Source: Escherichia coli (GTDB lineage Bacteria; Pseudomonadota; Gammaproteobacteria; Enterobacterales; Enterobacteriaceae). Taken from it: 64,000 nt of DNA. Location: the NCBI RefSeq assembly GCF_013122565.1, contig NZ_CP053258.1. One strand, 5' to 3'. The notes below the pieces were generated by a model that searched no databases, was not told the DNA's origin, and worked only from the letters and a program-made list of their open reading frames with translations. Of this stretch, positions 41,187 to 64,000 are shown piece after piece. A program made the position numbers and the translations under genes. Each line of letters starts with the position of its first letter. The first letter of the stretch is position 1.

Positions 41187-41693
41187 ATGAATAGCATTGA
41201 ACATTATCATGACTGGCTTCGTGACGCACACGCAATGGAGAAACAAGCGGAATCAATGTTGGAGTCTATGGCCAGCAGGATAGAAAACTATCCTGAGTTA
41301 CGTTCCAGAATTGAGCAGCACATTAGCGAAACAAAGAACCAGCTTTCACAGCTTGAAAGCATACTTGATCGTAATAATATTTCTCGCTCTGTCATTAAAG
41401 ACTCTATGAGTAAAATGGCCGCGTTTGGGCAATCTATTGGTGGAATTTTTCCATCTGATGAAATTGTCAAAGGTTCGATCAGTGGCTATGTTTTTGAACA
41501 ATTTGAAATTGCGTGCTACACATCTCTTCTCGCAGCAGCCAAAAATGCGGGTGATACAGCTTCAGTACCAATTATTGAAGCAATTCTTAATGAAGAAAAA
41601 CAAATGGCTGAATGGCTTCTTAACCATATTCCAGACACCACTGAGCAGTTTATGGTCAGATCTGAAATTGATGGCGCTGAAGCAAAAAAATAA
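41187..41693 (+). CDS. DUF892 ferritin-like protein (YciE/YciF family), second copy
   Basis: 168 aa MNSIEHYHDWLRDAHAMEKQAESML...FEIACYTSLLAAAKNAGD... Confidence 0.8.
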   Translation: MNSIEHYHDWLRDAHAMEKQAESMLESMASRIENYPELRSRIEQHISETKNQLSQLESILDRNNISRSVIKDSMSKMAAFGQSIGGIFPSDEIVKGSISGYVFEQFEIACYTSLLAAAKNAGDTASVPIIEAILNEEKQMAEWLLNHIPDTTEQFMVRSEIDGAEAKK

Positions 41694-41711
41694 TTCTTTA
41701 GAGGAGGAATT

Positions 41712-42602: not shown

Positions 42603-42692
42603 TTATCTTCTGGTATTTAGCTATCTCTCATAAATTTTAATGGCCGCAGAGATATCCTAAGCTCTAGCCACTGAAAATACATTTATATTTCG

Positions 42693-42725
42693 AAGCCCGC
42701 GATATTATAAGCGGGCTTTTATTTT
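42693..42725 (+). terminator. rho-independent terminator after the catalase gene
   Basis: Stem aagcccgc/gcgggctt (8 bp) followed by TTATTTT. Confidence 0.7.
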
Positions 42726-42832
42726 AACCTTCTGGTATTACAGGCCACTCAATATCCGGTGCTACTGATGGCTCAACACGATTCAACAACATCCGATATG
42801 TCTTCCATGCGGCCATTCAACATTTCGCAGAA

Positions 42833-43718
42833 ATGCAACTAAGAGACATTACTGAATCAAAAATTTATTCAGCAATGCAGAAAATGACGAACCGGCGTCA
42901 TGAGGAAAACTGGAAACTCAGGGCAGAAGCATGCAGAAAAAAGGGAAACCTGTTCCAGAATACACGCCAAACCCAGCGTCTGTTGCAACGAAGGCTACGC
43001 ATCTTTCATTTATAAAAGCCCTGCTAAGAGCCGCAGAGCGTGAATAGAAAATGCTGGATAAGGCACCAATTATTAAAGTGCCTCAACCGAAGAATAAACG
43101 GATCCGCTGGCTGGAACCTCATGAAGCACAAAGGCTGATTGATGAATGTCCGGATCCATTAAAGTCTGTTGTTGAATTTGCACTGGCAACAGGTTTAAGA
43201 CGCTCGAACATCATCAACCTTGAATGGCAACAAATAGACATGCAGCGCCGGGTGGCCTGGATAAACCCGGAAGAGAGTAAATCAAACTGCGCGATTTGCG
43301 TTGCGCTGAATGATACTGCATGTCGAGTATTGAAAAAACAAATCGGGAATCACACCGTTGGGTATTTGTGTAAAAGGAAAGCTGTACAAAACCAGACGGA
43401 ACGAAAGCGCCAACAGTCAGGAAGATGCAGTATGACGCAAACACAGCCAGGAAAACGGCGCTGAGACGAGCTGGTATTGATGATTTCAGATTTCACGACT
43501 TGAGACACACCTGGGCAAGTTGGCTGGTTCAAGCCGGAGTCCCGTTGTCAGTGTTACAGGAAATGGGAGGCTGGGAGTCTATCGAAATGGTTCGACAATA
43601 TGCTCACCTCGCACCTAATCACCTTACCGAACACGCACGGCAAATAGACTCGATCCTAAACCCATCGGTCCCAAATTTGTCCCAGTCAAAAAATAAGGAA
43701 GGTACTAACGATGTGTAA
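42833..43718 (+). pseudogene. decayed tyrosine recombinase (phage/island integrase) beside thrW
   Basis: Three consecutive short ORFs in different frames; second and third carry integrase catalytic boxes ([18 protein letters not shown]; [12 protein letters not shown]...MVRQYAHL); N-terminal half absent or degenerate. Confidence 0.75.
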
Positions 43719-43922: not shown

Positions 43923-45176
43923 TTACGCACGAATGGTGTAATCACCAATGCCGATCCACTTGTAAGTGGTCAGTGCTTCCAGCCCCATTGGGCCACGCGC
44001 GTGGAGTTTTTGTGTGCTTACCGCCACTTCCGCACCCAGACCAAACTGGCCGCCGTCGGTAAAACGCGTAGAGGCGTTAACGTAAACAGCGGACGAATCC
44101 ACTTCGTTAACAAAACGCTGGGCGTTGCGCATATCGCGGGTCAGGATCGCATCGGAGTGTTGTGTGCCGTGTTCACGAATATGGGCGATGGCATCGTCAA
44201 GATCGCTGACGATTTTGACGTTCAAATCTAATGACAGAAACTCATCGTCATACTCTTCGGCTTTAACCGCCACCACCTTCGCGGGGCCTGTCTGCAACTG
44301 CGCCAGCGCAGCAGCATCTGCGTGTAACGTCACGCCGCTTTCCGCCATTTGCTTGCTTAATGCGGGCAGGAAGCTATCGGCGATGTTTTTATTTACCAGC
44401 AACGTTTCTACCGTATTACATGTGCTCGGACGCTGAGTTTTCGCGTTGACGATCACTTTTAATGCTTCAGCGATCTCTGCACTTTCATCAACGTAAATAT
44501 GGCATACGCCTATACCACCAGTGATCACCGGGATTGTCGACTGTTCGCGGCACAGTTTATGCAAACCAGCGCCACCACGCGGGATCAGCATGTCGATGTA
44601 TTTATCCATACGCAGCATTTCACTGACCAGCGCACGGTCAGGATTATCAATCGCCTGCACGGCACCCGCCGGTAAGCCACAGGATTTCAGGGCGTCCTGA
44701 ATCACCGCCACCGTTGCCGCGTTAGTGCGACAGGTTTCTTTGCCACCACGCAGGATCACCGCATTACCGGTTTTCAGGCACAGCGAAGCGACATCAACCG
44801 TCACGTTCGGGCGCGCTTCATAAATCACGCCAATAACCCCCAGCGGTACGCGACGACGCTCAAGACGCAGGCCGCTGTCCAGTACGCCGCCATCGATTAC
44901 CTGCCCCACCGGATCGGCGAGATTGCACACCTGGCGCACATCGTCGGCAATGCCTTTCAGCCGTGCGGGCGTCAGTGCCAGACGGTCAAGCATCGCTTCG
45001 CTAAGGCCATTGGCACGCGCGTCAGCAACATCCTGGGCGTTAGCGTTGAGGATGATTTCGCTTTGTGCTTCCAGTTCATCGGCGATTTTTTCCAGCACGC
45101 GATTTTTTTCGCGGCTGGAGAGTTGCGCTAATTTATACGAGGCTTGCTTCGCGGCAATGCCCATTTGTTCCAGCAT
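43923..45176 (-). CDS. proA: gamma-glutamyl phosphate reductase
   Basis: 417-aa [41 protein letters not shown]... Confidence 0.93.
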
Positions 45177-45187
45177 CAGCCTGCTCC

Positions 45188-46291
45188 TTAACGGGTAATC
45201 ATGTCATCACGGTGAACGGCAACCGGGCCGTATTCATATCCCAGTATTGCATCAATTTCTTGCGAGTGGTGTCCGGCAATACGGCGTAATGCATCGCTGT
45301 TGTAACGACTGACGCCGTGAGCGATATCGCGACCTTCGAGGTTGCAAATGCGGATGACTTCACCACGCGAGAAATTGCCAGTCACGCTTTTAATGCCTTT
45401 CGGCAACAGGGAGCTGCCGCGTTCAAGAATGGCGGCAGTTGCCCCTTCATCTACCGTGATTTCACCCGCCGGCGGCGCACCGAAAATCCAGCGTTTACGG
45501 TTTTCAAGCGGAGTCGCCTGGGCATGGAACAACGTACCGACGGAAATGCCTTCCATCACATCACCAATAACGCCCGGCTTGCTGCCCGCGGCAATAATGG
45601 TGTCGATACCCGCACGGCAAGCCACGTCTGCGGCCTGCAATTTGGTACTCATGCCGCCAGTTCCGAGGCCTGAAACGCTGTCACCGGCAATCGCGCGCAG
45701 TGCGTCATCAATGCCGTAAACATCTTTAATCAGTTCTGCCTGCGGATTGCTGCGCGGGTCAGCGGTATACAAACCTTTTTGATCGGTCAGCAGCAACAGT
45801 TTATCGGCACCCGCCAGAATCGCCGCCAGCGCAGAAAGGTTATCGTTATCGCCGACCTTAATCTCTGCCGTAGCGACAGCATCGTTCTCATTGATTACCG
45901 GAACGATATTGTTATCGAGCAACGCTCGCAGGGTGTCGCGGGCGTTCAGGAAGCGTTCACGGTCTTCCATATCAGCACGGGTCAGCAGCATCTGCCCGAC
46001 GTGAATGCCATAAATCGAAAACAGCTGTTCCCACAGTTGAATCAGTCGACTCTGCCCTACCGCCGCCAGCAGTTGTTTCGAGGCGATAGTCGCTGGCAGT
46101 TCCGGGTAACCCAGGTGCTCACGTCCGGCGGCGATCGCGCCCGACGTCACAATAACAATCCGATGCCCGGCGGCATGTAACTGCGCGCACTGGCGAACAA
46201 GTTCAACGATATGGGCACGGTTCAGGCGGCGCGATCCGCCTGTTAGCACACTGGTGCCGAGTTTTACCACCAGCGTCTGGCTGTCACTCAT
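45188..46291 (-). CDS. proB: glutamate 5-kinase
   Basis: Start at [19 protein letters not shown] (367 aa); ORF track starts 29 codons upstream. Confidence 0.92.
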
Positions 46292-46479
46292 GATTCTCTG
46301 CCATTCAATTTTAGGAAAAATGATATCAAACGAACGTTTTAGCAGGACTGTCGTCGGTTGCCAACCATCTGCGAGCAAAGCATGGCGTTTTGTTGCGCGG
46401 GATCAGCAAGCGTAGCGGCAGTTGTTTACGCTTTTATTACAGATTTAATAAATTACCACATTTTCAGAATATTATTAAT

Positions 46480-46497
46480 CTGTAATATATCTTTAAC
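46480..46497 (+). promoter_or_regulatory. Pho box (PhoB binding site) of phoE promoter
   Basis: CTGTAATATATCTTTAAC, about 80 nt upstream of phoE start. Confidence 0.65.
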
Positions 46498-46578
46498 AAT
46501 CTCAGGTTAAAAACTTTCCTGTTTTCAACGGGACTCTCCCGCTGAATATTCGCGCGTTAATTAAAATCAGGAATGAAA

Positions 46579-47634
46579 ATGAAAAAGAGCACTCTGGCAT
46601 TAGTGGTGATGGGCATTGTGGCATCTGCATCCATACAGGCCGCAGAAATATATAACAAAGATGGTAATAAACTGGATGTCTATGGCAAAGTTAAAGCCAT
46701 GCATTATATGAGTGATAATGACAGTAAAGATGGCGACCAGAGTTATATCCGTTTTGGTTTTAAAGGTGAAACACAAATTAACGATCAACTGACTGGTTAT
46801 GGTAGGTGGGAAGCAGAGTTTGCCGGTAATAAAGCGGAGAGTGATACTGCACAGCAAAAAACACGTCTCGCTTTTGCCGGATTGAAATATAAAGATTTGG
46901 GTTCTTTCGATTATGGTCGTAACCTGGGCGCGTTGTATGACGTGGAAGCCTGGACCGATATGTTCCCGGAATTTGGTGGCGACTCCTCCGCACAGACCGA
47001 CAACTTTATGACCAAACGCGCCAGCGGTCTGGCGACGTATCGGAACACCGACTTCTTCGGCGTTATCGATGGCCTGAACTTAACCCTGCAATATCAAGGG
47101 AAAAACGAAAACCGCGACGTTAAAAAGCAAAACGGCGATGGCTTCGGCACGTCATTGACATATGACTTTGGCGGCAGCGATTTCGCCATTAGTGGGGCCT
47201 ATACCAACTCAGATCGCACCAACGAGCAGAACCTGCAAAGCCGTGGCACAGGCAAGCGTGCAGAAGCATGGGCAACAGGTCTGAAATACGATGCCAATAA
47301 TATTTATCTGGCAACTTTCTATTCTGAAACACGCAAAATGACGCCAATAACTGGCGGCTTTGCCAATAAGACACAGAACTTTGAAGCGGTCGCTCAATAC
47401 CAGTTTGACTTTGGTCTGCGTCCATCGCTGGGTTATGTCTTATCGAAAGGGAAAGATATTGAAGGTATCGGTGATGAAGATCTGGTCAATTATATCGATG
47501 TTGGTGCTACGTATTATTTCAACAAAAATATGTCAGCCTTTGTTGATTATAAAATCAACCAACTGGATAGCGATAACAAATTGAATATTAATAATGATGA
47601 TATTGTCGCGGTTGGCATGACCTATCAGTTTTAA
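46579..47634 (+). CDS. phoE: phosphate-starvation porin PhoE
   Basis: Start at [21 protein letters not shown] (351 aa); ends ...VGMTYQF. Confidence 0.93.
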
Positions 47635-47672
47635 TGGATATTGCCGGATGTGATGCATCCGGCACATTTCAC

Positions 47673-48131
<459 letters not shown>

Positions 48132-49376
48132 TTAACACAAACGTTTTTCGATCCAGTCGGTGATTTCCTGAAGACCTTTGTCAAAATTCCGATACACCGG
48201 GTTAAATGGGATCTCTAATAATTTACCGTCAGCAGATGATGAGGTGATTAAGCGTGAGTCCTCTTCCGGGCTGAACGGATCGTTCTTCCAGTAGCCTGAT
48301 AACATTGGCGTTGGGCAGCGACGTCCCAGCAATCCTTGCACTTTTAATGAATAGCGATTCAGCTCCACGCGCAACGCTTCGTCGGAAGCATCATGCATCC
48401 CCAAACGACTCGCCAGAACGTCAAGATACATTTCCGGCACCTGTTGCTGGCACTTAAAATCACTCAACAGGGTATGAACTACCGGACCAAGACAGGCAAC
48501 CGCTTTCAGACGCGGCGATTCAAGGTATGCCAGACGCACTGCAACGTTAGCGCCGAAACGGAAACCAAAGGCCGCGACGCGAGTGTGATCCACCCACGGT
48601 ACGTTAGGCAGCGCCTTTAAGACGTGCTGATGCAACAGGCTGGAGTCCTGGGTGAGCTTCCATTTTGAAGAAAAGCCCACCGACGGCATATCAATAGTCA
48701 GCATCGCAATGCCGCGCGGCGCAAAATAACGTTCATACAGGCTGTAATAGTCCGTCTGCATCGCATCCAGACCACCACACATTAATACTGTCGGGAACGG
48801 GCCATCGCCTTTCGGCATATGCAAAAAGCCGGTGATGGGCGCACCGCCGGGTACGGTAAACTCCATCTGCCGCATCGTGCCCGGCAGACGCTGAGCGGCC
48901 TCTTCATAGGCGCGGTTTGACAAAGCCTGCGCTTGCTCAGCCAGGTCATCTCCTTTCAGATGAGGATAGGCGGCAATGTTGTACAACGTAGCCGCATGAA
49001 GCCAGTGTCGACCACTGAGTTGCGGATCTTCTTCCGCACAGGCTTTTTGTTGCCACACCATCGCCTGGGTGGCCCACTCATAAATCCAGTTGCCGCCGCG
49101 GTAGCCAATCACCGTATCGTATAAATCATCGTCGGTACGTTCGGCATCGCTCATCACAATACGGGCCTGGACGTCGAGGATTTCACGTGGGTCAATGCCG
49201 CGCCAGATCCACATCAGACGGTTAATCATGCGATACCAGTGAGGGATGGTTTTACCATCAAGGGCCGACTGCACAGGCGGTTGTGCGCCGTGATTAAAGC
49301 GGCGGACTAGCGTCGAGGTTTCAGGATGTTTAAAGCGGGGTTTGAACAGGGTTTCGCTCAGGTTTGCCTGTGTCAT
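48132..49376 (-). CDS. frsA: esterase FrsA (alpha/beta hydrolase)
   Basis: 414-aa [30 protein letters not shown]... Confidence 0.9.
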
Positions 49377-49467
49377 GGATGCAGCCTCCAGAATACTTAC
49401 TGGAAACTATTGTAACCTGCCTGAAGTTAAAAAGAACAACGCCCGGCAGTGCCAGGCGTTGAAAAGA

Positions 49468-49926
49468 TTAGCGACCGGAGATTGGCGGGACGAATACGAC
49501 GCCCATATCCCACGGCTGTTCGATCCAGGTATCTTGTGGGATATCAACAACATAATCATCAACCAGCGGACGACCAGCCGGTTTTGCGAAGATGGTGACA
49601 AAGTGCGCTTTTGGATACATTTCGCGGATTGCCACTGCAGTACCACCGGTATCCACCAGGTCATCAATTACGATGAAGCCTTCGCCATCGCCTTCTGCGC
49701 GTTTCAGCACTTTAAGCTCGCGCTGGTTGTCGTGATCGTAGCTGGAAATACAAACGGTATCGACATGACGAATACCCAGTTCACGCGCCAGTAACGCACC
49801 CGGTACCAGACCGCCACGGCTTACGGCAATAATGCCTTTCCATTGTTCAGAAGGCATCAGTCGGCTTGCGAGTTTACGTGCATGGATCTGCAACATGTCC
49901 CAGGTGACGATGTATTTTTCGCTCAT
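49468..49926 (-). CDS. gpt: xanthine-guanine phosphoribosyltransferase
   Basis: 152-aa [42 protein letters not shown]... Confidence 0.93.
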
Positions 49927-50186
49927 GTGAAGTGTCCCAGCCTGTTTATCTACGGCTTAAAAAGTGTTCGAGGGGAAAATAGGTTGCGCGAGATTATAGA
50001 GATCTGGCGCACTAAAAACCAGTATTTCACATGAGTCCGCGTCTTTTTACGCACTGCCTCTCCCTGACGCGGGATAAAGTGGTATTCTCAAACATATCTC
50101 GCAAGCCTGTCTTGTGTTGACAACATTTTCTGCTAACCCTGTGACCTGCAATACTGTTTTGCGGGTGATCGACAAGGAGACTTAAC

Positions 50187-51644
50187 GTGTCTGAACTGTC
50201 TCAATTATCTCCACAGCCGCTGTGGGATATTTTTGCCAAAATCTGTTCTATTCCTCACCCGTCCTATCATGAAGAGCAACTCGCTGAATACATTGTTGGT
50301 TGGGCAAAAGAGAAAGGTTTCCATGTCGAACGCGATCAGGTAGGTAATATCCTGATTCGTAAACCTGCTACCGCAGGTATGGAAAATCGTAAACCGGTCG
50401 TCTTACAGGCCCACCTCGATATGGTGCCGCAGAAAAATAACGACACCGTGCATGACTTCACGAAAGATCCTATCCAGCCTTATATTGATGGCGAATGGGT
50501 TAAAGCGCGCGGCACCACGCTGGGTGCAGATAACGGCATTGGTATGGCGTCTGCGCTGGCGGTTCTGGCTGACGAAAACGTGGTTCACGGCCCGCTGGAA
50601 GTGCTGCTGACCATGACCGAAGAAGCCGGTATGGACGGTGCGTTCGGCTTACAGAGCAACTGGTTGCAGGCTGATATTCTGATTAACACCGACTCCGAAG
50701 AAGAAGGTGAAATCTACATGGGTTGTGCGGGGGGTATCGACTTCACCTCCAACCTGCATTTAGATCGTGAAGCGGTTCCAGCTGGTTTTGAAACCTTCAA
50801 GTTAACCTTAAAAGGTCTGAAAGGCGGTCACTCCGGCGGTGAAATCCACGTTGGCCTGGGTAATGCCAACAAACTGCTGGTGCGCTTCCTGGCGGGTCAT
50901 GCAGAAGAACTGGACCTGCGTCTTATTGATTTCAACGGCGGCACACTGCGTAACGCCATCCCGCGTGAAGCCTTTGCGACCATTGCTGTCGCAGCTGATA
51001 AAGTCGACGCCCTGAAATCTCTGGTGAATACTTATCAGGAGATCCTGAAAAACGAGCTGGCAGAGAAAGAGAAAAATCTGGCCTTGTTGCTGGACTCTGT
51101 AGCGAACGATAAAGCTGCCCTGATTGCGAAATCTCGCGATACCTTTATTCGTCTGCTGAACGCCACCCCGAACGGTGTGATCCGCAATTCCGACGTGGCA
51201 AAAGGTGTGGTCGAAACCTCCCTGAACGTCGGTGTTGTAACCATGACCGACAACAACGTAGAAATTCACTGTCTGATCCGTTCTCTGATCGACAGCGGTA
51301 AAGACTACGTGGTGAGCATGCTTGATTCGCTGGGTAAACTGGCTGGCGCGAAAACCGAAGCGAAAGGCGCATATCCTGGCTGGCAGCCGGACGCTAATTC
51401 TCCGGTGATGCATCTGGTACGTGAAACCTATCAGCGCCTGTTCAACAAGACGCCGAACATCCAGATTATCCACGCGGGCCTGGAATGTGGTCTGTTCAAA
51501 AAACCGTATCCGGAAATGGACATGGTTTCTATCGGGCCAACAATCACCGGTCCACACTCTCCGGATGAGCAAGTTCACATCGAAAGCGTAGGTCACTACT
51601 GGACACTGCTGACTGAACTGCTGAAAGAAATTCCGGCGAAGTAA
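50187..51644 (+). CDS. pepD: cytosol nonspecific dipeptidase PepD
   Basis: 485-aa GTG-start ORF MSELSQLSPQPLWDIFAKICSIPHPSYHEEQLAEYIVGWAKEKGF... Confidence 0.92.
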   Translation: MSELSQLSPQPLWDIFAKICSIPHPSYHEEQLAEYIVGWAKEKGFHVERDQVGNILIRKPATAGMENRKPVVLQAHLDMVPQKNNDTVHDFTKDPIQPYIDGEWVKARGTTLGADNGIGMASALAVLADENVVHGPLEVLLTMTEEAGMDGAFGLQSNWLQADILINTDSEEEGEIYMGCAGGIDFTSNLHLDREAVPAGFETFKLTLKGLKGGHSGGEIHVGLGNANKLLVRFLAGHAEELDLRLIDFNGGTLRNAIPREAFATIAVAADKVDALKSLVNTYQEILKNELAEKEKNLALLLDSVANDKAALIAKSRDTFIRLLNATPNGVIRNSDVAKGVVETSLNVGVVTMTDNNVEIHCLIRSLIDSGKDYVVSMLDSLGKLAGAKTEAKGAYPGWQPDANSPVMHLVRETYQRLFNKTPNIQIIHAGLECGLFKKPYPEMDMVSIGPTITGPHSPDEQVHIESVGHYWTLLTELLKEIPAK

Positions 51645-51700
51645 TTATTTGATTTGCTGCCGGATGGCGTTCAATCACCTTCCGGCAGTTTCATCCTTCA

Positions 51701-52315
51701 TTATCCTTCGATAAAAGCCATCCCTGTAAATGTCCGTCGCGGGTTGCCACGTTCAATCTGGTGATGGAACATTCGCCGCTGCGATTTCAGCACCGCGCTA
51801 TTCTCCTGTTGCTGTTGTTCCAGCTTCCAGGCAATCAGCAATCGCGCCAGCCGTTTGTTAGCATGCTGGCTGCGCTCTGACTGAACCTTCACGCTAATAC
51901 CGGATGCCAGATGCGTGGCACGTACCGCCGAGTCGGTTTTATTGACATGTTGACCGCCCGGCCCCGACGAACGCAGCGTCTCATACCGGATCGCATCGGA
52001 TTGCCCCTGCTCATCAGCGGTAAAACGCCCAATGCCCAGAAACCAGTTTTTACGCCCGTGATGTGGGCGATACGGGCTCGGGCAAATCCACTGAATAGTG
52101 CCACACCAGCTTTCGCTTAACGCCCATGCGTTGTCGCCATCCAGAGAAATCAGCGCCGAACGCAGCGTGTCAGAGTAGCGGCCTGTTTCTGTTTCCAGCA
52201 CCGTTACCGCGACGTCTTGTCGGGCAGTTTCTTTAATTAGCCTGTCCAGCGCCTTTTTCACTGCGAGACAACATTCTTCCGGCCCCTGCGCTGAGGAGAG
52301 TTGTAGCAAGATCAT
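51701..52315 (-). CDS. prfH: release-factor-like protein PrfH (GGQ motif, no codon-recognition domain), apparently intact
   Basis: Start at [21 protein letters not shown] (204 aa) overlapping rtcB stop in ATGA; GGQ motif in [11 protein letters not shown]. Confidence 0.8.
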
Positions 52316-53463
52316 CCTTTTTTCCCTCCACTGTTTTTGAGCGTTAGCACCGGACGCAGTCGCGCGACAGGAATAATTAACCCAGCCTGCACCAGACATT
52401 GCACCACGCTTTCAGCCGATTTATAAGCTTGTGGCGCTTCTTCAAAGATGAGTTGTTTATCGCGACAAATTACCCGGCTGCCAAGTTCAGTACGCGAGAG
52501 TTGCGTCACCGTGTATTTCGCTGCCAGACGCCCTTTACAATCGGTGCGCCCCCATTTACGCCCAGCCCCATGCGCCAGCGAATGCAATGTTTCCTCACTC
52601 CTGACGGGCTGAACCAGCCAGGAGTAATCACCGCGTGAACCGGGAATAACCACCAGACCACAGTCATCAGGCGTGGCACCTTTACGATGTAAGACCCCTT
52701 GTTGATCACCGATTCGACACGCGCTAACAAAGTTATGCGCCACATCCAGAACCGGACTTCCGGTGGCCTTAACCTGTTGCATTATGCGCAAAGCGATCAG
52801 CTGGCGATTAATACGCGCAAACGCCAGCGCATCGTCATGTTCCGCAATATAACGTAGCGCGTCGTCACTGCCTTCAGGCAAACCATGATGCGAAAACGAG
52901 GCAATATGCCGCTGTAAAATAGACTGCCCTAAACCACGCGAGCCGCTATGAACCAACAGTTGCAGATGCTGCGCATCCAGACCTGCCAGTGCAAACAGTT
53001 CAGCGTTGATGATTTGATCAACTTGTTGCAGTTCAGCGAAATGATTGCCGCCACCGATAGAGCCAAGCGAGCTGCGCCACGGATGCTGTGCAAATGCTGA
53101 CGGCAGGTTTTCCTCCAGCCAGCTTTCTTCAGCAACGTCATCCAAAGCTGATAATCGCTTTTCAAACTTATCGGCGTTGTATTTGCGAGCGAGAATATCT
53201 GTTTGCCATAGCGCCATGCCGCAGCCGATATCATTGCCGACCAGTGCCGGGTAAAAACGACCAACTGAGAAGAACGCTGCGCCAATCGGGTAGCCGCGTC
53301 CGGGATGTAAATCTGGCATCCCCACTACGCGCTGCATGTTGGGTAAATTTGCCGTGGTGTGTAATTGTTGGATCGCTAAACTCTCGATCCACAGGTCATC
53401 AGATGCGATGGTAAATACCGCATCGGATAAGGGACGAATATATTTGCCCATGTACCATTCCAT
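52312..53463 (-). CDS. RtcB-family RNA ligase paralogue (RtcB2), apparently intact
   Basis: 383-aa ORF with RtcB-like His/Cys-rich segments (...[16 protein letters not shown]..., ...[10 protein letters not shown]..., ...AHGAGRK...); translationally coupled to prfH. Confidence 0.75.
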
Positions 53464-53464
53464 T

Positions 53465-53600
53465 TATACTCGTCATACTTCAAGTTGCATGTACTGCGAC
53501 TGCGTTCGTTCACCCCAGTCACTTACTTTAGTAAGCTCCTGGCGATTCACTCGCTTGTCACCTTCCTGCAACTCGAATTATTTAGAGTATATAAATATTA
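53465..53600. repeat. ERIC/IRU-like intergenic repeat
   Basis: Minus strand contains GTGAATCgCCAGGAGCTTACtAAAGTAAGTGACTGGGGTGAaCGAACGCAGTCGCAGTACATGCAACTTGAAGTATGACGAGTATA, close to the ERIC consensus as I remember it. Confidence 0.55.
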
Positions 53601-53768
53601 AAAATCAGGAAATGGCAGACGAATCCAGGGCAAGAAAAAAGAATTAATCCTGGAAAGGTCTGCAAAGAGTCATTGATAAAGGATTTGTCATGATTTACCT
53701 CCTTGCAGTTTGTGGAATCAGAAAACGCGCACATACTAGGCGGGCGTTATTTTCATTGCAAGCTGGAT

Positions 53769-54221
53769 TTAATGTTGCGGTTTATATCGCATATAAAAAT
53801 TAGTAAACCACGCACCCCGGCATTCAACGCGCTGCTGCTTAACTGTCTGAAAACCATAACGTTCAAAAAAGGGTTTTGCGGTTATGCTGGCGTCCACCGT
53901 AAGTTCGGATTCAGACTTAATCCAAGGTTTTAACAAAGCACTGGCAACCCCACGGCGGGTGTATTCAGGGTCAACAAATAACATATCGATATAATGTTCA
54001 ATGCGGGAAATAAAACCAACCGGTTGTGCATTAATGACTGCAACCCGCACTTGTGATTTCGCGAGTTTCTCCTTCCAGCGAGATTCGTCAATCTGCGCCC
54101 AGACTGCAATTTGTTGTGGTGAATAATGCTCACTGGCTGTCATCGTAACCGCTCTAATGAAAATAGCGCATAGTTGCTGAAAATCGCCAGGCTGATAGTT
54201 TCTTATTTGTATGTTATTCAT
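53769..54221 (-). CDS. yafP: GNAT-family acetyltransferase YafP
   Basis: 150-aa [28 protein letters not shown]...; start overlaps dinB stop (ATGA). Confidence 0.85.
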
Positions 54222-55273
54222 AATCCCAGCACCAGTTGTCTTTCCATTTGAGGGTCAAGCAACGTCACATGCAGCCCCACCAGTCGCACACCGCGCCCGC
54301 CGCGGCGTTCATCCCAGGTTTTACGCGCGGTGGCGATTAGATCAGCTTTATTCAGCCGCGGCCAGACGTGCTCCTGGGTGGTTTGCTGAAAATCGTCGAA
54401 CTTTAATTTCACCCCCTGGCGAGCAATCAGTAAATCAGGTTTTACCTTTGCCAGACGGCGTTCAAGTTCCGGATACAGCCGCTCGATAATCGCTTCACAT
54501 TCAGACCAGTGATGAATATCTTCCGCCATCGTGCGTTCCACGCCGACGGATTTTCGCAACCGTTCGCTGTTAACATCGCGTTCGTCAATCCCCTGACTAC
54601 GCTCCCACAAAATGCGGCCAAATTTGCCAAAACGTTTAAGCAACGTCACCAGATCACACTTTTGTACATCACCGCAGGTCCGCAGCCCCATCGCTTCCAG
54701 TTTTGCCGCCGAGACTTTGCCGACGCCGGGGATTTTTGCCAGTGGTAAGGTTTGTAAAAATGCCGGAACTTCTGCCGGCGTAATCACAAACTGGCCGTTG
54801 GGTTTATTCATGTCGGAGGCGATTTTGGCGAGAAACTTTACTGGTGCCACGCCCGCAGACGCCGTCAGTTGCAGCTCGCTGAAAATCGTCTGGCGGATTT
54901 CCTGGGCGATGAGGGTCGCAGAACCGTGGCAATGGACGCTATCGGTGACATCGAGATAAGCCTCATCCAGTGACAACGGTTCAATACGCGAGGTGTAACG
55001 CGAGAAGATTTCACGGATATGATTTGAGGCTTCTTTGTAGGCGTCAAAGCGCCCCGGAAGCAAGGTGAGATGTGGGCATAATTTGAGCGCCATCCCAGTA
55101 GGCATAGCGCTACGTACGCCAAATTTACGCGCGGGATAATTGGCGGTGCTGATCACCCCCCGACGTTCGCGGCTGCCGCCAATAGCAATAGGGATATCGC
55201 GCAGGGCGGGATTGTCGCGCATCTCCACTGCGGCGAAAAAGCAGTCCATATCCACATGAATGATTTTACGCAT
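54218..55273 (-). CDS. dinB: DNA polymerase IV (Y-family)
   Basis: 351-aa [61 protein letters not shown]... Confidence 0.95.
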
Positions 55274-55287
55274 TGCTCACCTCTCAA

Positions 55288-55303
55288 TACTGGTAAAGTA
55301 TAC
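55288..55303 (-). promoter_or_regulatory. LexA box (SOS operator) of dinB
   Basis: Minus strand CTGTATACTTTACCAG (CTG-N10-CAG) immediately upstream of dinB. Confidence 0.8.
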
Positions 55304-55343
55304 AGTGATTTCAGGGTTTGAGAAATGCGTAAAGATTCAGCAT

Positions 55344-56234
55344 TTAACGCGTTCGCTGCGAAAGCACCTGCTGCTTATCCAGCTTTTGCACCAGTGGCTG
55401 CACCACTTTATCCCCATGCTGACCAAAGTATTGATACAGCGTATCGGACGCACTTTTGGTCAGCACCATAATCTCAATACGCCGATTGCCCGCACTTTGC
55501 GGATTTTTCGCGTCCAGCAGCATCTGGTCCGCCATTGCGCTTACCTGCATCACTTTATCTTCCGGCATTCCTGCCTCTTCCAACACCCGACGAGCCGAAA
55601 GCGCGCGGTCACCCGAAAGGTTCCAGTTGTTGTAGATATTGTTTTTGTAAGCCATCGCATCGGTATGCCCGGTAATAATAATTTTGTTATCGAGCGAGTC
55701 GAACACTGGCGCGAGCTCCACCAGCAAAGTTTTAAAGAACGGCATAATCTGCGCGCTGCCGCGTTCGAACATATTGCGGTTCTGGTCGTCTTTAATCAGC
55801 ACGCGTAATCCCTGCGGGACAATCTCCATCTCCAGATTCGCTTCCATATGCGCATCACGGGCAATGGTGTTGATACTGGTTGCCAGCTCGCCAAGCTCGG
55901 TGGCGGATTTCTTCTTCAGCAGCGCCGTATTCTCGTTGACGTCGCGCGCTTTTTTCTCCGTCTCTTCCGGCACCGCCACGGTGGCAGGTTTTGGCGGATG
56001 AGACGGGCTGATTTTATTTAACGGCGACAACCCGCCACCATTGAAAATCGACTGCCCGTGCAGCGCGGCGATAATGCTTTCACGCTCGGATTTACTGACG
56101 CTGTTGACAATCAACTTTATTGTCGTCACCAAAGGGGCCGAGCGTATTTCCGAGGTTTCCGCCCGCTTTACCCTGGACGCGATGCCCGGCAAACAGATGG
56201 CGATTGACGCCGACCTTAACGCCGGGTTGATCAA
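55344..56234 (-). pseudogene. lafU: lafU fragment (MotB-like C-terminal OmpA-type domain), Flag-2 remnant
   Basis: ORF C-terminal region has MotB/OmpA-like peptidoglycan-binding domain (...IIITGHTDAMAYKNNIYNNWNLSGDRALSARRVLEEAGMPEDKV...NRRIEIMVL); N-terminal TM part absent; upstream 190 nt overlap the fhiA ORF on the other strand, so the true 5' boundary is uncertain. Confidence 0.6.
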
Positions 56235-57813
56235 CCAGGCGCAGGCGCAAACCCGGCGTAAAGATGTTGCCAGCGAGGCCGATTTCTACGGCGCGATGGA
56301 CGGGGCATCGAAGTTTGTGCGCGGGGACGCCATCGCCGGGATGATGATTCTGGCGATCAACCTGATCGGCGGCGTCTGTATCGGCATCTTCAAATACAAC
56401 CTGAGCGCCGACGCTGCCTTCCAGCAGTATGTGCTGATGACCATCGGCGACGGCCTGGTGGCGCAGATCCCTTCCCTGCTGCTCTCCACCGCGGCCGCGA
56501 TTATCGTCACCCGCGTCAGCGATAACGGCGATATCGCCCATGACGTGCGCCACCAGCTGCTGGCAAGCCCGTCGGTGCTCTACACCGCCACCGGGATCAT
56601 GTTCGTGCTGGCGGTGGTGCCGGGGATGCCGCATCTGCCGTTTTTGCTGTTCAGCGCCCTGCTTGGCTTTACCAGCTGGCGGATGAGCAAACGCCCGCAG
56701 GCGGCGGAGGCGGAAGAGAAAAGCCTCGAAACGCTGACCCGCACTATCACCGAAACCAGCGAGCAACAGGTCAGTTGGGAAACCATTCCACTGATCGAGC
56801 CCATCAGCTTAAGCCTTGGCTACAAGCTGGTGGCGCTGGTGGACAAAGCACAGGGTAACCCGCTCACCCAACGTATTCGCGGCGTGCGGCAGGTGATTTC
56901 TGACGGCAACGGCGTGCTGCTGCCGGAGATCCGCATTCGGGAAAACTTCCGCCTTAAGCCGAGCCAGTACGCCATTTTCATCAACGGCATTAAGGCTGAT
57001 GAAGCAGATATTCCGGCGGATAAACTGATGGCCCTGCCCTCCAGCGAAACCTACGGCGAGATTGACGGCGTGCTGGGGAACGACCCGGCGTACGGGATGC
57101 CGGTGACCTGGATCCAGCCCGCGCAGAAAGCGAAGGCGCTGAATATGGGGTATCAGGTAATCGACAGCGCCAGCGTGATTGCCACCCATGTGAACAAGAT
57201 TGTGCGCAGCTATATTCCTGATTTATTTAATTATGATGACATCACGCAGTTGCATAACCGTTTGTCGTCGATGGCACCGCGCCTGGCGGAGGATTTAAGC
57301 GCGGCGCTCAATTACAGCCAGTTGCTGAAAGTGTACCGGGCGCTGCTGACCGAAGGCGTTTCCCTGCGCGATATTGTCACCATCGCCACCGTGCTGGTCG
57401 CCAGTAGCACAGTGACCAAAGATCATATTCTGCTGGCGGCCGATGTGCGCCTGGCGCTGCGGCGCAGCATTACCCATTCGTTCGTTCGCAAGCAGGAGCT
57501 GGCGGTGTATACGCTGAATAATGAGCTGGAAAATCTGCTGACCAACGTGGTGAATCAGGCGCAACAGGGCGGCAAAGTGATGCTCGACAGCGTGCCGGTG
57601 GACCCGAATATGCTCAACCAGTTCCAGAGTACGATGCCGCAGGTAAAAGAGCAGATGAAAGCGGCGGGGAAAGACCCGGTGCTGCTGGTGCCGCCGCAGT
57701 TGCGCCCTTTGCTGGCGCGCTACGCAAGGTTGTTTGCGCCGGGGCTGCATGTGCTGTCGTATAACGAAGTGCCGGATGAGCTTGAGTTGAAGATTATGGG
57801 GGCGTTGAGTTGA
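56041..57813 (+). pseudogene. fhiA: fhiA/lfhA fragment (FlhA homologue lacking N-terminal region), Flag-2 remnant
   Basis: FlhA-like motif ...INFIVVTKGAERISEVSARFTLDAMPGKQMAIDADLNAGLI... begins about 20 codons into the ORF; junction with the lafU fragment lies in 56041-56234. Confidence 0.6.
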
Positions 57814-57849
57814 TGGCTTTTAAGAAACGCAATACGATGACATCAATTT

Positions 57850-58248
57850 ATGACGTCAGGGATTGATAAGATGATGAAAACGCGTTCATTAATATCTCAA
57901 GCATCGAACATTATCACAATTAAAGGTCAACCAGCCGCAGTGACATTTGAAGCCGATATCAACGCATTTCGCGGCAAGTTCCTCAATGTAAACGGTTATT
58001 GTGACTTTGTAGCCACAAGTATTGAGGCATTATATCGTGAAGGCGAAAGCGCGCTGGATGAGTGGATGGCGGATTGTGAAGAGGACGGTATTGCCCCTTT
58101 TCGTGAAGAAGAAGAGCAAAAACGCCTGACGCTTCGTGTTCCTCATCACATTGATTCGCGGCTGACCATCGTCGCCAGACAACATTCCATTTCAAAAAAC
58201 CAGCTCATTATTGATGTCTTAGAACGTGAGTTTTCAGCCCAGATGTAA
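57850..58248 (+). CDS. HicB-like antitoxin-family protein (N-terminal HicB fold plus C-terminal ribbon-helix-helix), no HicA partner found
   Basis: 132-aa ORF; C-terminal RHH-like segment KRLTLRVPHHIDSRLTIVARQHSISKNQLIIDVLEREF; strong terminator immediately downstream. Confidence 0.55.
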   Translation: MTSGIDKMMKTRSLISQASNIITIKGQPAAVTFEADINAFRGKFLNVNGYCDFVATSIEALYREGESALDEWMADCEEDGIAPFREEEEQKRLTLRVPHHIDSRLTIVARQHSISKNQLIIDVLEREFSAQM

Positions 58249-58252
58249 ACAG

Positions 58253-58282
58253 GTCGGATGCCGCGTGGCATCCGACCTTTTG
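58253..58282 (+). terminator. rho-independent terminator
   Basis: Stem ggtcggatgc/gcatccgacc (10 bp), loop cgcgtg, followed by TTTT. Confidence 0.75.
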
Positions 58283-58304
58283 CCAGTTCGTCAATATTAC
58301 CCAT

Positions 58305-59054
58305 TTACAAAATCGTCTCTTCCGTCAAAATCCGCCGCGCGCCTAAAAAATGATCCTGCCAGAAAGGTTCAGCTAATCGGCTTATCCGAATGGTTTCGCC
58401 GGTACGTGGTGACTCGATAAACTGACCGTCTCCCAGATACACCCCCATATGATCGGCTATCTCGCGGCTGTGAATATGGAAAAACAGCAAATCTCCCCGG
58501 CGCAGGTCGTTATTCGCCACAATCGTTGCCCGACGGTAGTGATACATCTCATTAGCCGTGCGCGGGAGTTTCGCCTCGAGGATCTTGTTGTAGGCATAAA
58601 AAACCAACCCGCTACAGTCGAAGCCTTGATCGGGCCGTGTGCCGCCCCAGACGTAAGGCTTGCCAAGCTGCTGCTCCAGGCGGTGGATCGCCACTTCGGT
58701 GATGTTATGCAGGTGATCGCTGCTTAAAAAGTGGTTGTTTTCCGCCAGCGCCTGCCAGCGTCTGTCACTCGCCTTGAGCGGTGCAGGAAACCATTCTGGA
58801 TGCTGTTTTATCTGCTCCCGGTTGTGCTGGCGCAGCGCCCTTCTGCTTTCGGCATTGCCTTCCACAATATAGCTGGCCTGTTTTTTCAGATGGGTTTGGT
58901 ACTGTTTTAATAACCGCGCACGGTTTTGCATCCGCTGGCGGGCGGCGTAGCTGAAAGAGATGTGTGATGTGGTGGCGCTGGCAAATGAAGAAAACGGCAA
59001 GCAAAGCAACAGTAATCCCGACAACACAAAGGATGGAATCGACGGCAAGGACAT
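58305..59054 (-). CDS. yafL: NlpC/P60-family lipoprotein YafL
   Basis: Start at MSLPSIPSFVLSGLLLLCLPFSS (249 aa); NlpC/P60 catalytic Cys region GFDCSGLVFYAY. Confidence 0.85.
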   Translation of the reverse strand: MSLPSIPSFVLSGLLLLCLPFSSFASATTSHISFSYAARQRMQNRARLLKQYQTHLKKQASYIVEGNAESRRALRQHNREQIKQHPEWFPAPLKASDRRWQALAENNHFLSSDHLHNITEVAIHRLEQQLGKPYVWGGTRPDQGFDCSGLVFYAYNKILEAKLPRTANEMYHYRRATIVANNDLRRGDLLFFHIHSREIADHMGVYLGDGQFIESPRTGETIRISRLAEPFWQDHFLGARRILTEETIL

Positions 59055-59231
59055 ACTCAATAATGGCTGGTCATGCTTTAATGTTGCAGTGTATCCCGGA
59101 TCGTTTCTGAACAAACTTAATAAACCATTATTATAAAATTAACAGATATATTTCAGTGGATTATGTAAATACATCAGTTTATTAAATTGCTCATGAATTG
59201 CCGCTGTTGCTCAATTGAGCTACAATTCAAG

Positions 59232-59247
59232 CTGAATATATATACAG
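59232..59247 (+). promoter_or_regulatory. LexA box of dinJ-yafQ promoter
   Basis: CTGAATATATATACAG (CTG-N10-CAG) about 17 nt upstream of dinJ start. Confidence 0.75.
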
Positions 59248-59263
59248 CACAGGAGATACCCCA

Positions 59264-59524
59264 ATGGCTGCTAACGCATTTGTTCGCGCCCGAATCGATG
59301 AGGATTTGAAGAATCAGGCGGCGGACGTACTGGCCGGGATGGGGCTGACCATCTCTGACCTGGTTCGCATAACCCTCACAAAGGTCGCGCGTGAAAAGGC
59401 ATTGCCGTTTGATTTACGCGAGCCTAATCAATTAACTATTCAATCAATCAAAAACAGCGAAGCTGGCGTTGGTGTTCATAAGGCCAAAGACGCCGATGAT
59501 TTATTTGATAAATTAGGAATTTAA
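59264..59524 (+). CDS. dinJ: antitoxin DinJ
   Basis: 86-aa ORF MAANAFVRARIDEDLKNQAADVLAGMGLTISDLVRITLTKVAREKALPFDL... Confidence 0.93.
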   Translation: MAANAFVRARIDEDLKNQAADVLAGMGLTISDLVRITLTKVAREKALPFDLREPNQLTIQSIKNSEAGVGVHKAKDADDLFDKLGI

Positions 59525-59526
59525 AT

Positions 59527-59805
59527 ATGATTCAAAGGGATATTGAATACTCGGGACAATTTTCAAAGGATGTAAAACTTGCACAAAAGCGTCATAAGGA
59601 TATGAATAAATTGAAATATCTTATGACGCTTCTTATCAATAATACTTTACCGCTTCCAGCTGTTTATAAAGACCACCCGCTGCAAGGTTCATGGAAAGGT
59701 TATCGCGATGCTCATGTCGAACCGGACTGGATCCTGATTTACAAACTTACCGATAAACTTTTACGATTTGAGAGAACTGGAACTCACGCGGCGCTCTTTG
59801 GGTAA
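59527..59805 (+). CDS. yafQ: mRNA interferase toxin YafQ (RelE family)
   Basis: 92-aa ORF MIQRDIEYSGQFSKDVKLAQKRHKDMNKLKYLMTLLINNTLPLPAVYKDHPLQG... Confidence 0.93.
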   Translation: MIQRDIEYSGQFSKDVKLAQKRHKDMNKLKYLMTLLINNTLPLPAVYKDHPLQGSWKGYRDAHVEPDWILIYKLTDKLLRFERTGTHAALFG

Positions 59806-59960
59806 AGCCCGCTTCCGATGAAATTTGTAAACCCTGCGCCGACAGGCTTGCGTAAAACTCTTTTGGTGATAATGTGAGCCTTCCAAATCCAGACTATTCC
59901 GATTTGGGATCTATTTTGCCGTCCTGGCGTGTGTAACCGTTTTATCAAGGAATAAGCAGT

Positions 59961-60701
59961 ATGCGTAAAATCGCATTAATTCTTGCGATGTTGTTGATCC
60001 CGTGCGTTTCGTTTGCCGGTTTGCTGGGCAGCAGTAGCTCGACCACGCCAGTGAGCAAAGAGTATAAGCAGCAGTTGATGGGATCCCCTGTCTACATCCA
60101 GATCTTCAAGGAAGAACGTACGCTCGATCTCTACGTCAAAATGGGCGAGCAATATCAACTGCTCGACAGCTATAAAATCTGTAAATATTCCGGCGGCTTA
60201 GGGCCAAAACAGCGTCAGGGCGATTTCAAAAGCCCGGAAGGGTTTTATAGCGTCCAGCGTAATCAGTTAAAACCAGACAGCCGTTACTACAAAGCGATTA
60301 ATATTGGTTTCCCCAATGCCTATGACCGTGCGCATGGTTATGAAGGGAAATACCTGATGATCCACGGCGATTGTGTTTCCATCGGCTGCTACGCGATGAC
60401 CAATCAGGGTATTGATGAGATCTTCCAGTTCGTTACTGGTGCGCTGGTGTTTGGTCAGTCAAGTGTGCAGGTGAGTATTTACCCGTTCCGCATGACCGAC
60501 GCCAACATGCAGCGCCATAAATATTCCAACTTTAAGGACTTCTGGGAGCAACTGAAGCCGGGTTATGACTACTTTGAGCAAACCCGTAAGCCACCGACCG
60601 TTTCTGTGGTCAATGGTCGTTACGTGGTCAGCAAGCCGTTAAGCCACGAAGTTGTGCAGCCACAACTGGCATCAAACTACACGCTCCCCGAGGCAAAATA
60701 A
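59961..60701 (+). CDS. yafK: L,D-transpeptidase-fold protein YafK
   Basis: 246-aa ORF with signal peptide [19 protein letters not shown]; catalytic-region motif [12 protein letters not shown]. Confidence 0.88.
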
Positions 60702-61439
60702 GCGCCATTCGCCTGGCATAATCTTTTGCCAGGTTTCATTGCCCGTCAGCGGCTGTGTCGCAATCACCGTGACCACATCATTCGGTGTGGTCTGCGAGCT
60801 GAAGTCGATTTCCACATCCTGATCCAGCAACGTTGCCACGCCAAACGGTGCGCGGCGGGTGATCCAGTGCAGATTGGTCGAGCAATACGCCATTACATAG
60901 CGCCCATCCGAAAGCAGCATGTTGAAAACGCCCTTCTGCCGCAGTTCGTCCGCCAGTGAAGCGATATATTTAAACACTGCTGCCATGTTGCCCGGCGTGC
61001 GCGGGTAACGCTGCGTTAATTTATGCAGCAGCCAGCAGAAGGCTTTTTCGCTGTCGGTTTCACCGACCGGGCGGAAGTTGCCGGTTTCCAGTGATTTGTA
61101 GCCCGTCAGTTGTCCGTTATGGGCATAAGTCCAGTTACGCCCCCATAACTCGCGGGTAAATGGGTGAGTATTTTCCAGCGCCACCTCGCCCCGATTAGCC
61201 TGGCGAATATGAGCCACCACCGAACAGGATTTTATCGGGTAGTCCTGGACAAGTTTGGCGATGGGGGAATTAAAGCTGGGTTGTGGATCTTTAAATGTGC
61301 GACAGCCTTTACCTTCGTAAAAGGTAATGCCCCAGCCATCTTTATGTGGCCCGGTTCCACCACCACGCTGTACAAGTCCGGTGAAACTAAAGCAGATATC
61401 GGTAGGGACGTTGGCGCTCATCCCGAGCAATTCGCACAT
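60672..61439 (-). CDS. yafJ: class II glutamine amidotransferase YafJ
   Basis: Start at [19 protein letters not shown] (255 aa; N-terminal Cys nucleophile after Met); 30-nt convergent overlap with yafK. Confidence 0.85.
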
Positions 61440-61501
61440 GGGTAACCTCCACAACAGCGGGAGCGCATGGCCCCCGGCGAAGATTGATTTAAGAATTTTC
61501 A

Positions 61502-61640
61502 GGTCGGATGCGGCGTGAACGCATTATTCGGCCTTCGGTTCGCGTACAGATTTGTAGGCATGATAAGACGCGTCAGCGTCGCATCAGGCATCAGCGCACA
61601 AATGCTGGATGCGGCGTAAACGCCTTATCCGGCCTACGCC
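61502..61640. repeat. BIME (three REP units) between yafJ and gmhA
   Basis: ggtcggatgcggcgtgaacgc..., gtaggcatgataagacgcgtcagcgtcgcatcaggca, tgctggatgcggcgtaaacgccttatccggcctacgcc. Confidence 0.75.
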
Positions 61641-61644
61641 AGAC

Positions 61645-62223
61645 TTACTTAACCATCTCTTTTTCAATTAACTGGATCAGGATATGGATCACTTTAATGT
61701 GGATCTCCTGAATGCGGTCGGCATAACCAAAGTGCGGAACGCGAATTTCGATATCCGCCGTGCCAGCCATTTTGCCGCCGTCTTTACCGGTCAGGGTGAT
61801 CACTTTCATCCCCTTCTCACGCGCCGCTGCGATCGCTTTGATCACGTTTGCAGAGTTACCGGAAGTGGAGATCCCCAGCAGTACATCGCCTTCGCGACCT
61901 ACCGCTTCAACGTAACGGGAGAAAATATCATTGAAACCGAAATCATTACCGACGCAGGAAATATGACTAACGTCAGAAATAGCAATCGCCGGGTAGCCCG
62001 GACGGTTTTCACGGTAGCGACCGGTCAACTCTTCGGCAAAGTGCATGGCGTCGCAATGGGAGCCGCCGTTGCCGCAGGAAAGCACTTTACCACCGGCTTT
62101 AAAGCTGTCTGCTAACAGGACCGCCGCGCGCTGAATGGCGTGAATATTGGCGTCATCTTTTAAAAAGTTAGCCAGCGTTTCCGCCGCTTCGTTCAGTTCG
62201 TTACGAATAAGATCCTGGTACAT
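61645..62223 (-). CDS. gmhA: phosphoheptose isomerase
   Basis: Start at [20 protein letters not shown] (192 aa); ORF track starts 54 codons upstream. Confidence 0.92.
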
Positions 62224-62462
62224 GAGGATATCCTTCAGCATAAATGTAATAGACAAAATGCAGTGTACCGGATACCGCCAAAAGCGAGAAGTACGGGCAG
62301 GTGCTATGACCAGGACTTTTTGACCTGAAGTGCGGATAAAAACAGCAACAATGTGAGCTTTGTTGTAATTATATTGTAAACACATTGCTAAATGTTTTTA
62401 CATCCACTACAACCATATCATCACAAGTGGTCAGACCTCCTACAAGTAAGGGGCTTTTCGTT

Positions 62463-64000
62463 ATGATGATTTTGAGTATTCTCGCTACGGTTGTCCTGCT
62501 CGGCGCGTTGTTCTATCACCGCGTGAGCTTATTTATCAGCAGTCTGATTTTGCTCGCCTGGACAGCCGCCCTCGGCGTTGCTGGTCTGTGGTCGGCGTGG
62601 GTACTGGTGCCTCTGGCCATTATCCTCGTGCCATTTAACTTTGCGCCTATGCGTAAGTCGATGATTTCCGCGCCGGTATTTCGCGGTTTCCGTAAGGTGA
62701 TGCCGCCGATGTCGCGCACTGAGAAAGAAGCGATTGATGCGGGCACCACCTGGTGGGAGGGCGACTTGTTCCAGGGCAAGCCGGACTGGAAAAAGCTGCA
62801 TAACTATCCGCAGCCGCGCCTGACGGCTGAAGAGCAAGCGTTTCTCGACGGCCCGGTAGAAGAAGCCTGCCGGATGGCGAATGATTTCCAGATCACCCAT
62901 GAACTGGCGGATCTGCCGCCAGAGTTGTGGGCGTACCTTAAAGAGCATCGCTTCTTCGCGATGATCATCAAAAAAGAGTACGGCGGACTGGAGTTCTCGG
63001 CTTATGCCCAGTCTCGTGTGCTGCAAAAACTCTCCGGCGTGAGCGGGATCCTGGCGATTACCGTCGGCGTGCCGAACTCATTAGGCCCGGGCGAGCTACT
63101 GCAACATTACGGCACTGATGAGCAGAAAAATCACTATCTGCCGCGTCTGGCGCGTGGTCAGGAGATCCCTTGCTTTGCACTGACCAGCCCGGAAGCGGGT
63201 TCCGATGCGGGCGCGATTCCGGACAACGGGATTGTCTGCATGGGTGAATGGCAGGGCCAGCAGGTGCTGGGGATGCGTCTGACCTGGAACAAACGCTACA
63301 TTACGCTGGCACCGATTGCGACTGTGCTTGGGCTGGCGTTTAAACTCTCCGACCCGGAAAAATTGCTGGGTGGTGCAGAAGATTTAGGTATTACCTGTGC
63401 GCTGATCCCGACCACCACGCCGGGCGTGGAAATTGGTCGTCGCCACTTCCCGCTGAATGTGCCGTTCCAGAACGGACCGACGCGCGGTAAAGATGTCTTC
63501 GTACCGATCGACTACATTATCGGCGGGCCGAAAATGGCCGGGCAAGGCTGGCGGATGCTGGTGGAGTGCCTCTCGGTGGGCCGCGGCATCACCCTGCCTT
63601 CCAACTCAACCGGCGGCGTGAAATCGGTAGCGCTGGCAACCGGCGCGTATGCGCACATTCGCCGTCAGTTCAAAATCTCTATTGGTAAGATGGAAGGGAT
63701 TGAAGAACCGCTGGCGCGTATTGCCGGTAATGCCTATGTGATGGATGCTGCGGCGTCGCTGATTACCTACGGCATTATGCTCGGCGAAAAACCTGCCGTG
63801 CTGTCGGCTATCGTTAAGTATCACTGTACCCACCGCGGGCAGCAGTCGATTATTGATGCGATGGATATCACTGGTGGTAAAGGCATTATGCTCGGGCAAA
63901 GCAACTTCCTGGCCCGTGCTTACCAGGGCGCACCGATTGCCATCACCGTTGAAGGGGCTAACATTCTGACCCGCAGCATGATGATCTTCGGCCAGGGGGC
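62463..64000 (+). CDS. fadE: acyl-CoA dehydrogenase FadE, partial (3' end beyond window)
   Basis: ATG at 62463; [43 protein letters not shown]...; open to the window edge, so absent from the ORF track. Confidence 0.9.

Follow-up and report, generated by a model that had tools for sequence, protein, structure and literature searches.

In Escherichia coli K-12 the dinB gene is known to be bound by LexA and to be expressed in a damage-inducible manner. The operon to which it belongs occurs in two forms, and the shorter of these, in which dinB is followed directly by yafP with the same ATGA overlap as reported below, was described in 2011 by Gutierrez, Elez, Clermont, Denamur and Matic (Nucleic Acids Res 39:4192; PMC3105422). 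In that survey dinB and yafP were the only genes of the operon in 40% of the sequenced strains (98 in all) and in 50% of the ECOR collection; group B1 is two-gene, group A is mostly four-gene, both forms are present in groups B2 and D, and Escherichia fergusonii has four genes (PMC3105422). The authors proposed that the two genes were lost independently three times or more, through recombination between ATGA sequences, and invoked 'translational frameshifting' at the overlap (PMC3105422). In CFT073, a two-gene strain, YafP makes 4-nitroquinoline-1-oxide more cytotoxic and less mutagenic, and Pol IV works against the cytotoxic effect; an acetyltransferase activity of YafP on nitroaromatic metabolites is a proposal (PMC3105422).

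The window – by which we mean the whole 64 kb stretch of E. coli DNA that was analysed – contains a dinB–yafP locus that we identify, with a probability of roughly 0.93, as this known two-gene form of the operon. The two genes are adjacent and lie head to tail on the minus strand, and the locus has the following features.

53769-54221, minus strand: yafP, encoding a GNAT-family N-acetyltransferase of 150 aa, intact (NF007338 equivalog)
54218-54224, minus strand: junction ATTATGA, the last Leu codon and TGA of dinB overlapping the yafP ATG
54218-55273, minus strand: dinB, encoding DNA polymerase IV (Y family) of 351 aa, intact (NF002677 equivalog)
55288-55307, minus strand: LexA (SOS) box CACTGTATACTTTACCAGTA, with a CTG-N10-CAG core, read from the sequence
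55297-55324, minus strand: candidate sigma-70 promoter of dinB, with -35 TTCTCA, a 16-nt spacer and -10 TATACT

Both products are well preserved. DinB is 99.4% identical to K-12 DinB and matches the NCBIfam model NF002677 over residues 1–345 with a score of 546.7 bits (cutoff 256, E = 2e-164). Its translation retains D8, D103 and E104 and the C-terminal QLVLGL, which from established knowledge of E. coli Pol IV we take to be the catalytic carboxylates and the beta-clamp-binding motif, respectively. YafP is 96% identical to its K-12 counterpart, from which it differs by six substitutions, and it matches NF007338 over its full length (1–150 of 150) with 322.7 bits (cutoff 146, E = 3e-97). With the ORFs intact and scoring far above the cut-offs, a reading of either gene as an artefact or a pseudogene was ruled out. 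Across the junction the gene strand reads CTG GGA TTA TGA ATA ACA, and the ATGA at 54218-54221 (TCAT on the plus strand) is shared by the dinB TGA and the yafP ATG, just as the initial annotation had it.

The LexA box CACTGTATACTTTACCAGTA lies 14 nt upstream of the dinB ATG and is identical to the K-12 dinB box at 19 of 20 positions. The one difference is at the last base, which is A in the window and G in K-12, the A being nearer to the consensus, and the CTG-N10-CAG core is invariant across 20 Escherichia loci. A canonical LexA box had been claimed ahead of dinB and this is what we find, at 55288-55307; the end coordinate given with that claim (55303) cuts through the box. The candidate promoter has 9 of 12 consensus matches in a consensus scan, with its -10 hexamer TATACT inside the LexA box, and because the stretch is identical to that in K-12 we infer that it serves as the dinB promoter here too. 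A search with the idealised LexA 20-mer TACTGTATATATATACAGTA, with up to three mismatches allowed, returned no match, because in its central AT-rich part the box, like that of K-12, does not follow the idealised consensus; it differs from TACTGTATATATATACAGTA at six positions, and so does the K-12 box. The box was therefore judged by direct comparison with K-12 and 19 other loci.

The genes for the YafN antitoxin and YafO toxin are missing. With the K-12 proteins as tblastn queries, neither YafN (best E-value 1.1) nor YafO (best E-value 3.6) was found in any part of the window, and the K-12 yafN–yafO cassette likewise gave no blastn match within these 64 kb. The proposed absence of the pair from the operon thus holds for the whole window, and the statement that goes with it, that yafN and yafO sit between dinB and yafP in K-12, is right; the gene order in a K-12 derivative is dinB–yafN–yafO–yafP, whereas in the window nothing separates the polymerase gene from the GNAT gene and an SOS box precedes the two, which supports the interpretation offered with the observation. 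Alignment across the junction shows that the window is short of exactly 759 bp relative to K-12, and these comprise the dinB–yafN spacer, yafN, yafO and the 9-nt yafO–yafP spacer.

In K-12 the 759-bp cassette is bounded by a 7-bp direct repeat, ATTATGA, with one copy at the dinB stop and one at the yafP start, and the window keeps a single copy. The repeat is present at both ends of the cassette in all eight four-gene loci examined (K-12 and seven others). The final Leu codon and the stop codon of Pol IV fall within the left copy, and the YafP start codon falls within the right, so that a deletion between them would leave both proteins unaltered, Pol IV in its clamp-binding C-terminus and YafP at its start.

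Three described arrangements come closest to that of the window. The four-gene operon of K-12 has the same promoter and a LexA box that differs by 1 nt, and its neighbours are those found in the window, lafU and a truncated flhA-like gene upstream and rtcB/prfH downstream, although rtcB and prfH are fragments in K-12 whereas rtcB2 and prfH are intact in the window. The yafP gene follows yafO in K-12, whereas its overlap with dinB in the window would place it under translational coupling to the polymerase gene instead. With CFT073 the window shares its arrangement in full: order, strand, the ATGA (ATTATGA) fusion and the LexA core are all the same, neither locus has yafN or yafO, and the differences are allelic only, with 95.5% identity over 200 bp at the junction and with the outer positions of the LexA box (1 and 20) being T and G in CFT073 but C and A in the window. 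A third arrangement is that of Escherichia sp. E1V33 (dinB–yafN–yafO remnant–yafP), in which the toxin gene was lost by a short-homology deletion that leaves a TGA overlapping the yafP ATG; here the yafN antitoxin gene and the dinB–yafN spacer are retained, whereas the window has lost the entire cassette.

The two forms are about equally common. A direct dinB–yafP junction, scored when a 200-bp query centred on the junction was covered by one uninterrupted match, is present in 2,569 of 5,426 complete E. coli genomes (47%), and yafN–yafO DNA, sought with the K-12 cassette, in 2,847 of the 5,426 (52%). The two counts add up to 5,416, and genomes with the two-gene form therefore essentially never hold yafN–yafO elsewhere. 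CFT073, EC958 and strains of O103:H2 and O111:H8 have the two-gene form, and K-12, O157-like strains and UM146 the four-gene form. K-12 is thus unrepresentative in this respect, about half of E. coli strains making no YafO toxin during the SOS response. The two-gene structure, its frequency and its functional rationale were all published in 2011, and the locus is an ordinary polymorphism, roughly one E. coli genome in two having this form; its main use is as a point of annotation, and given that publication it has little discovery value. What is added here to the 2011 paper are the genome counts, the 7-bp repeat and, as described below, a cassette of low divergence, which refine the evolution of one toxin–antitoxin locus and open no new question.

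Gene content, junction, repeat, box and frequency were observed directly, and these, together with the literature and with established knowledge of the SOS system and of overlapping genes, lead to the following account of regulation, translational coupling and biochemistry. LexA bound to the box overlapping the -10 hexamer would repress a single dinB–yafP transcript, and DNA damage would derepress the operon by way of RecA-stimulated self-cleavage of LexA. An internal promoter or terminator would not fit into the 4-nt overlap, and one LexA-controlled transcript is therefore the natural reading; the overlap, the LexA box and the published work on K-12 and CFT073 (PMC3105422) point to co-transcription. 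Since no usable Shine–Dalgarno sequence precedes yafP at normal spacing, its translation most likely depends on ribosomes that have just translated dinB: after terminating at the dinB stop codon these would reinitiate at the yafP ATG overlapping it, a termination–reinitiation coupling that is a more conventional reading of an ATGA overlap than frameshifting. YafP synthesis would thereby be tied to that of Pol IV, directly so in all two-gene strains, and from the literature YafP would modify nitroaromatic genotoxins and Pol IV bypass the resulting adducts. Neither the YafO mRNA-interferase toxin nor the YafN antitoxin would be made from this operon.

As to how the two-gene form arose, we favour deletion: in a four-gene operon 759 bp would have been lost between the two copies of ATTATGA. 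Comparison of dinB and yafP from 19 loci shows two-gene and four-gene alleles interleaved in neighbor-joining trees, and alleles of the two kinds can be nearly identical on both sides of the junction. Over 1,509 positions, four-gene VG1046 and two-gene 1919D62 show 7 differences, none of them from -178 to +453 of the junction, and UM146 (four genes) and 1410D004 (two genes) show seven scattered differences. Near-identical flanks of two- and four-gene alleles on at least two haplotype backgrounds point to repeated deletion. Losses of other kinds also affect the toxin gene. In E1V33 (locus L003, 3466-3510) yafO is lost after codon 8, the remnant of 10 codons ending in a TGA that overlaps the yafP start codon, and yafN is kept; yafO of PK8261 (locus L014, 734-1132) has an internal stop, and that of MINF_8D is interrupted by IS1.

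Among outgroups, the four-gene form is present in Escherichia whittamii and the divergent SCPM-O-B-8794, and the two-gene form in Escherichia sp. MOD1-EC7003. A contig scan with YafP, in which peptide patterns had to match exactly, covered five loci; E. fergusonii, E. albertii and E. marmotae fall outside it, and the state of E. fergusonii is taken from PMC3105422. The 7-bp repeat alone leaves the direction of change unproven, because a target-site duplication would leave the same repeat.

Deletion in general need not mean deletion in this lineage, and it is quite possible, if somewhat against the odds, that the two-gene allele of the window entered by homologous recombination, with another two-gene strain as the donor. 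The allele is a mosaic, its dinB being closest to that of four-gene K-12 (14 differences) and its yafP to that of two-gene EC1515 (6 differences, against 12 to K-12); the 200 bp at the junction are 100% identical to EC1515, whereas the best match over 1,880 bp reaches only 98.5%. However, recombination following a local deletion could give the same pattern, and the comparison of one window with 19 loci is too small to place the breakpoints.

A further alternative to deletion as a one-way process emerges from the cassette itself. In the four-gene loci (L001, L004, L006, L009–L011, L014 and L016) yafN–yafO is 3–8 times less diverged at synonymous sites than dinB and yafP. The K-12 and E. whittamii sequences give dS values of 0.29 (dinB) and 0.17 (yafP), as against 0.088 (yafN) and 0.037 (yafO), and the ratios are similar between K-12 and UM146; for yafO this amounts to 3 synonymous differences, a small count but one far under the roughly 18 that the flanking rate would give. 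Such shallow divergence implies either exchange between lineages after they diverged or unusual constraint, and suggests that the yafN–yafO cassette has been exchanged recently between lineages. It also weakens the outgroup argument for four-gene ancestry, and gains by homologous recombination become possible beside losses. Presence and absence could then be a two-way polymorphism, with repeated loss at the ATTATGA repeats through slippage or recombination and re-acquisition by way of the conserved dinB and yafP flanks. We regard this as tentative and less likely than not, but it would explain why cassette dS is 0.04–0.09 and that of the flanks 0.17–0.29 even between E. coli and E. whittamii. 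If it is true, the published outgroup argument for four-gene ancestry is unsafe, and the cassette is a selfish element for which the SOS operon acts as a landing pad.

Deletion would have to be given up altogether if the two-gene form were ancestral and yafN–yafO a mobile cassette inserted at the ATGA overlap with duplication of ATTATGA, the window never having held it. The perfect 7-bp direct repeat that flanks the cassette is what such an insertion would leave, the 3–8-fold lower synonymous divergence fits a cassette that is younger or more recently exchanged than its flanks, and the divergent Escherichia sp. MOD1-EC7003 also has two genes. Nevertheless we consider this origin improbable. 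The four-gene form is present in E. whittamii, SCPM-O-B-8794 and, according to PMC3105422, E. fergusonii; the cassette has no transposase, integrase or terminal inverted repeats; flanks that are near-identical right up to the junction are more easily produced by deletion than by a cassette brought in from a donor that had diverged; and the partial deletions and pseudogenes of yafO reflect ongoing decay. The notion that the operon itself is decaying, with dinB, yafP or SOS control non-functional, has the six YafP substitutions relative to K-12 (W59R and L100W among them) in its favour and is scarcely credible, given two full-length ORFs scoring far over curated equivalog cut-offs, unbroken Pol IV catalytic residues and clamp-binding motif, and a promoter and LexA box that equal those of K-12 save for one base shifted towards the consensus.

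Downstream of yafP the window carries an intact ribosome-repair gene pair preceded by a conserved region. RtcB2 and PrfH repair and rescue ribosomes cut by colicin E3 (PMC9223846, PMC9304027), and in K-12 and many other strains only fragments of rtcB2 and prfH are present. The features of this segment are as follows.

51701-52399, minus strand: prfH, full length, overlapping rtcB2 (the pair spans 51701-53463)
52312-53463, minus strand: rtcB2, a 383-aa ORF, full length in the window
53455-53592: ERIC-like repeat between the leader and rtcB2
53615-53761, minus strand: conserved leader region between yafP and rtcB2
53663-53615, minus strand: nested hairpin of the leader, GCAGAC..TCCAGG / CCTGGA..GTCTGC, with its 5' arm inside the mini-ORF
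53691-53644, minus strand: 15-codon mini-ORF of the leader, MTNPLSMTLCRPFQD
53704-53697, minus strand: strong Shine–Dalgarno sequence of the leader, AAGGAGGT
53761-53733, minus strand: candidate promoter of the leader, TTGCAA-17-TAGTAT, with 8 of 12 consensus matches (under the scan threshold) and a variable patch as its spacer

The likely start of rtcB2 is the ATG at 53451, which fits the RtcB start annotated in RefSeq (MGKYIRP). A 121-nt block of the leader has 4 variable positions in 19 loci, compared with 12 in the 51 nt that precede it, and has no substitutions in E. whittamii, where the neighbouring genes differ by about 6%. A downstream AUUUCCU, followed by a U-run, is able to pair with the leader Shine–Dalgarno sequence as an anti-Shine–Dalgarno. 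An Rfam search of 53350-55450 placed no known RNA family over the leader, and the E. coli RtcB2–PrfH literature searched does not mention a leader upstream of rtcB2. In Pseudomonas aeruginosa the homologues armZ and PA5470 are controlled by a leader peptide, PA5471.1, through ribosome-stalling attenuation, which makes a similar sensor at rtcB2–prfH plausible; by this analogy 53615-53761 looks like a leader or attenuator of the rtcB2–prfH ribosome-repair operon.

A scan for a terminator after yafP found none, the only hairpin there being no better than shuffled sequence (z = -0.4); this stretch was accordingly rejected as a terminator and is now read as the spacer of the leader's candidate promoter. 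With both gene pairs on the same strand and no convincing terminator between them, SOS-induced read-through from dinB–yafP into rtcB2–prfH is conceivable. The ERIC-like repeat was detected as a sub-threshold match to Rfam V_AS5 (43 bits against a gathering threshold of 96), and the same Rfam search returned one other match, a chance one. The window, K-12 and others have the whole repeat; in some strains it lacks 72 bp internally, and B2 strains and E. whittamii do not have it at all.

Several further observations concern the remainder of the window. Next to the flhA remnant the hicA toxin gene has been deleted (57817-58248, plus strand), making this a second toxin–antitoxin locus without its toxin: compared with 1919D62, 82 bp stand in place of the 379 bp that contain hicA, and hicB is left with a new N-terminus as the ORF at 57850-58248 (plus strand). 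The neighbouring dinJ–yafQ region aligns to 1919D62 free of gaps and appears to be retained. A segment of about 3.8 kb by thrW–proA (39876-43714) has no counterpart in 1919D62, the best-matching strain; the ORF at 41712-42602 within it matches manganese catalase below the threshold (167 bits, cut-off 350). Among the 5,426 complete E. coli genomes of RefSeq the best match to positions 44000-64000 is only 97.6% identical, which makes this part of the window unusually distant.
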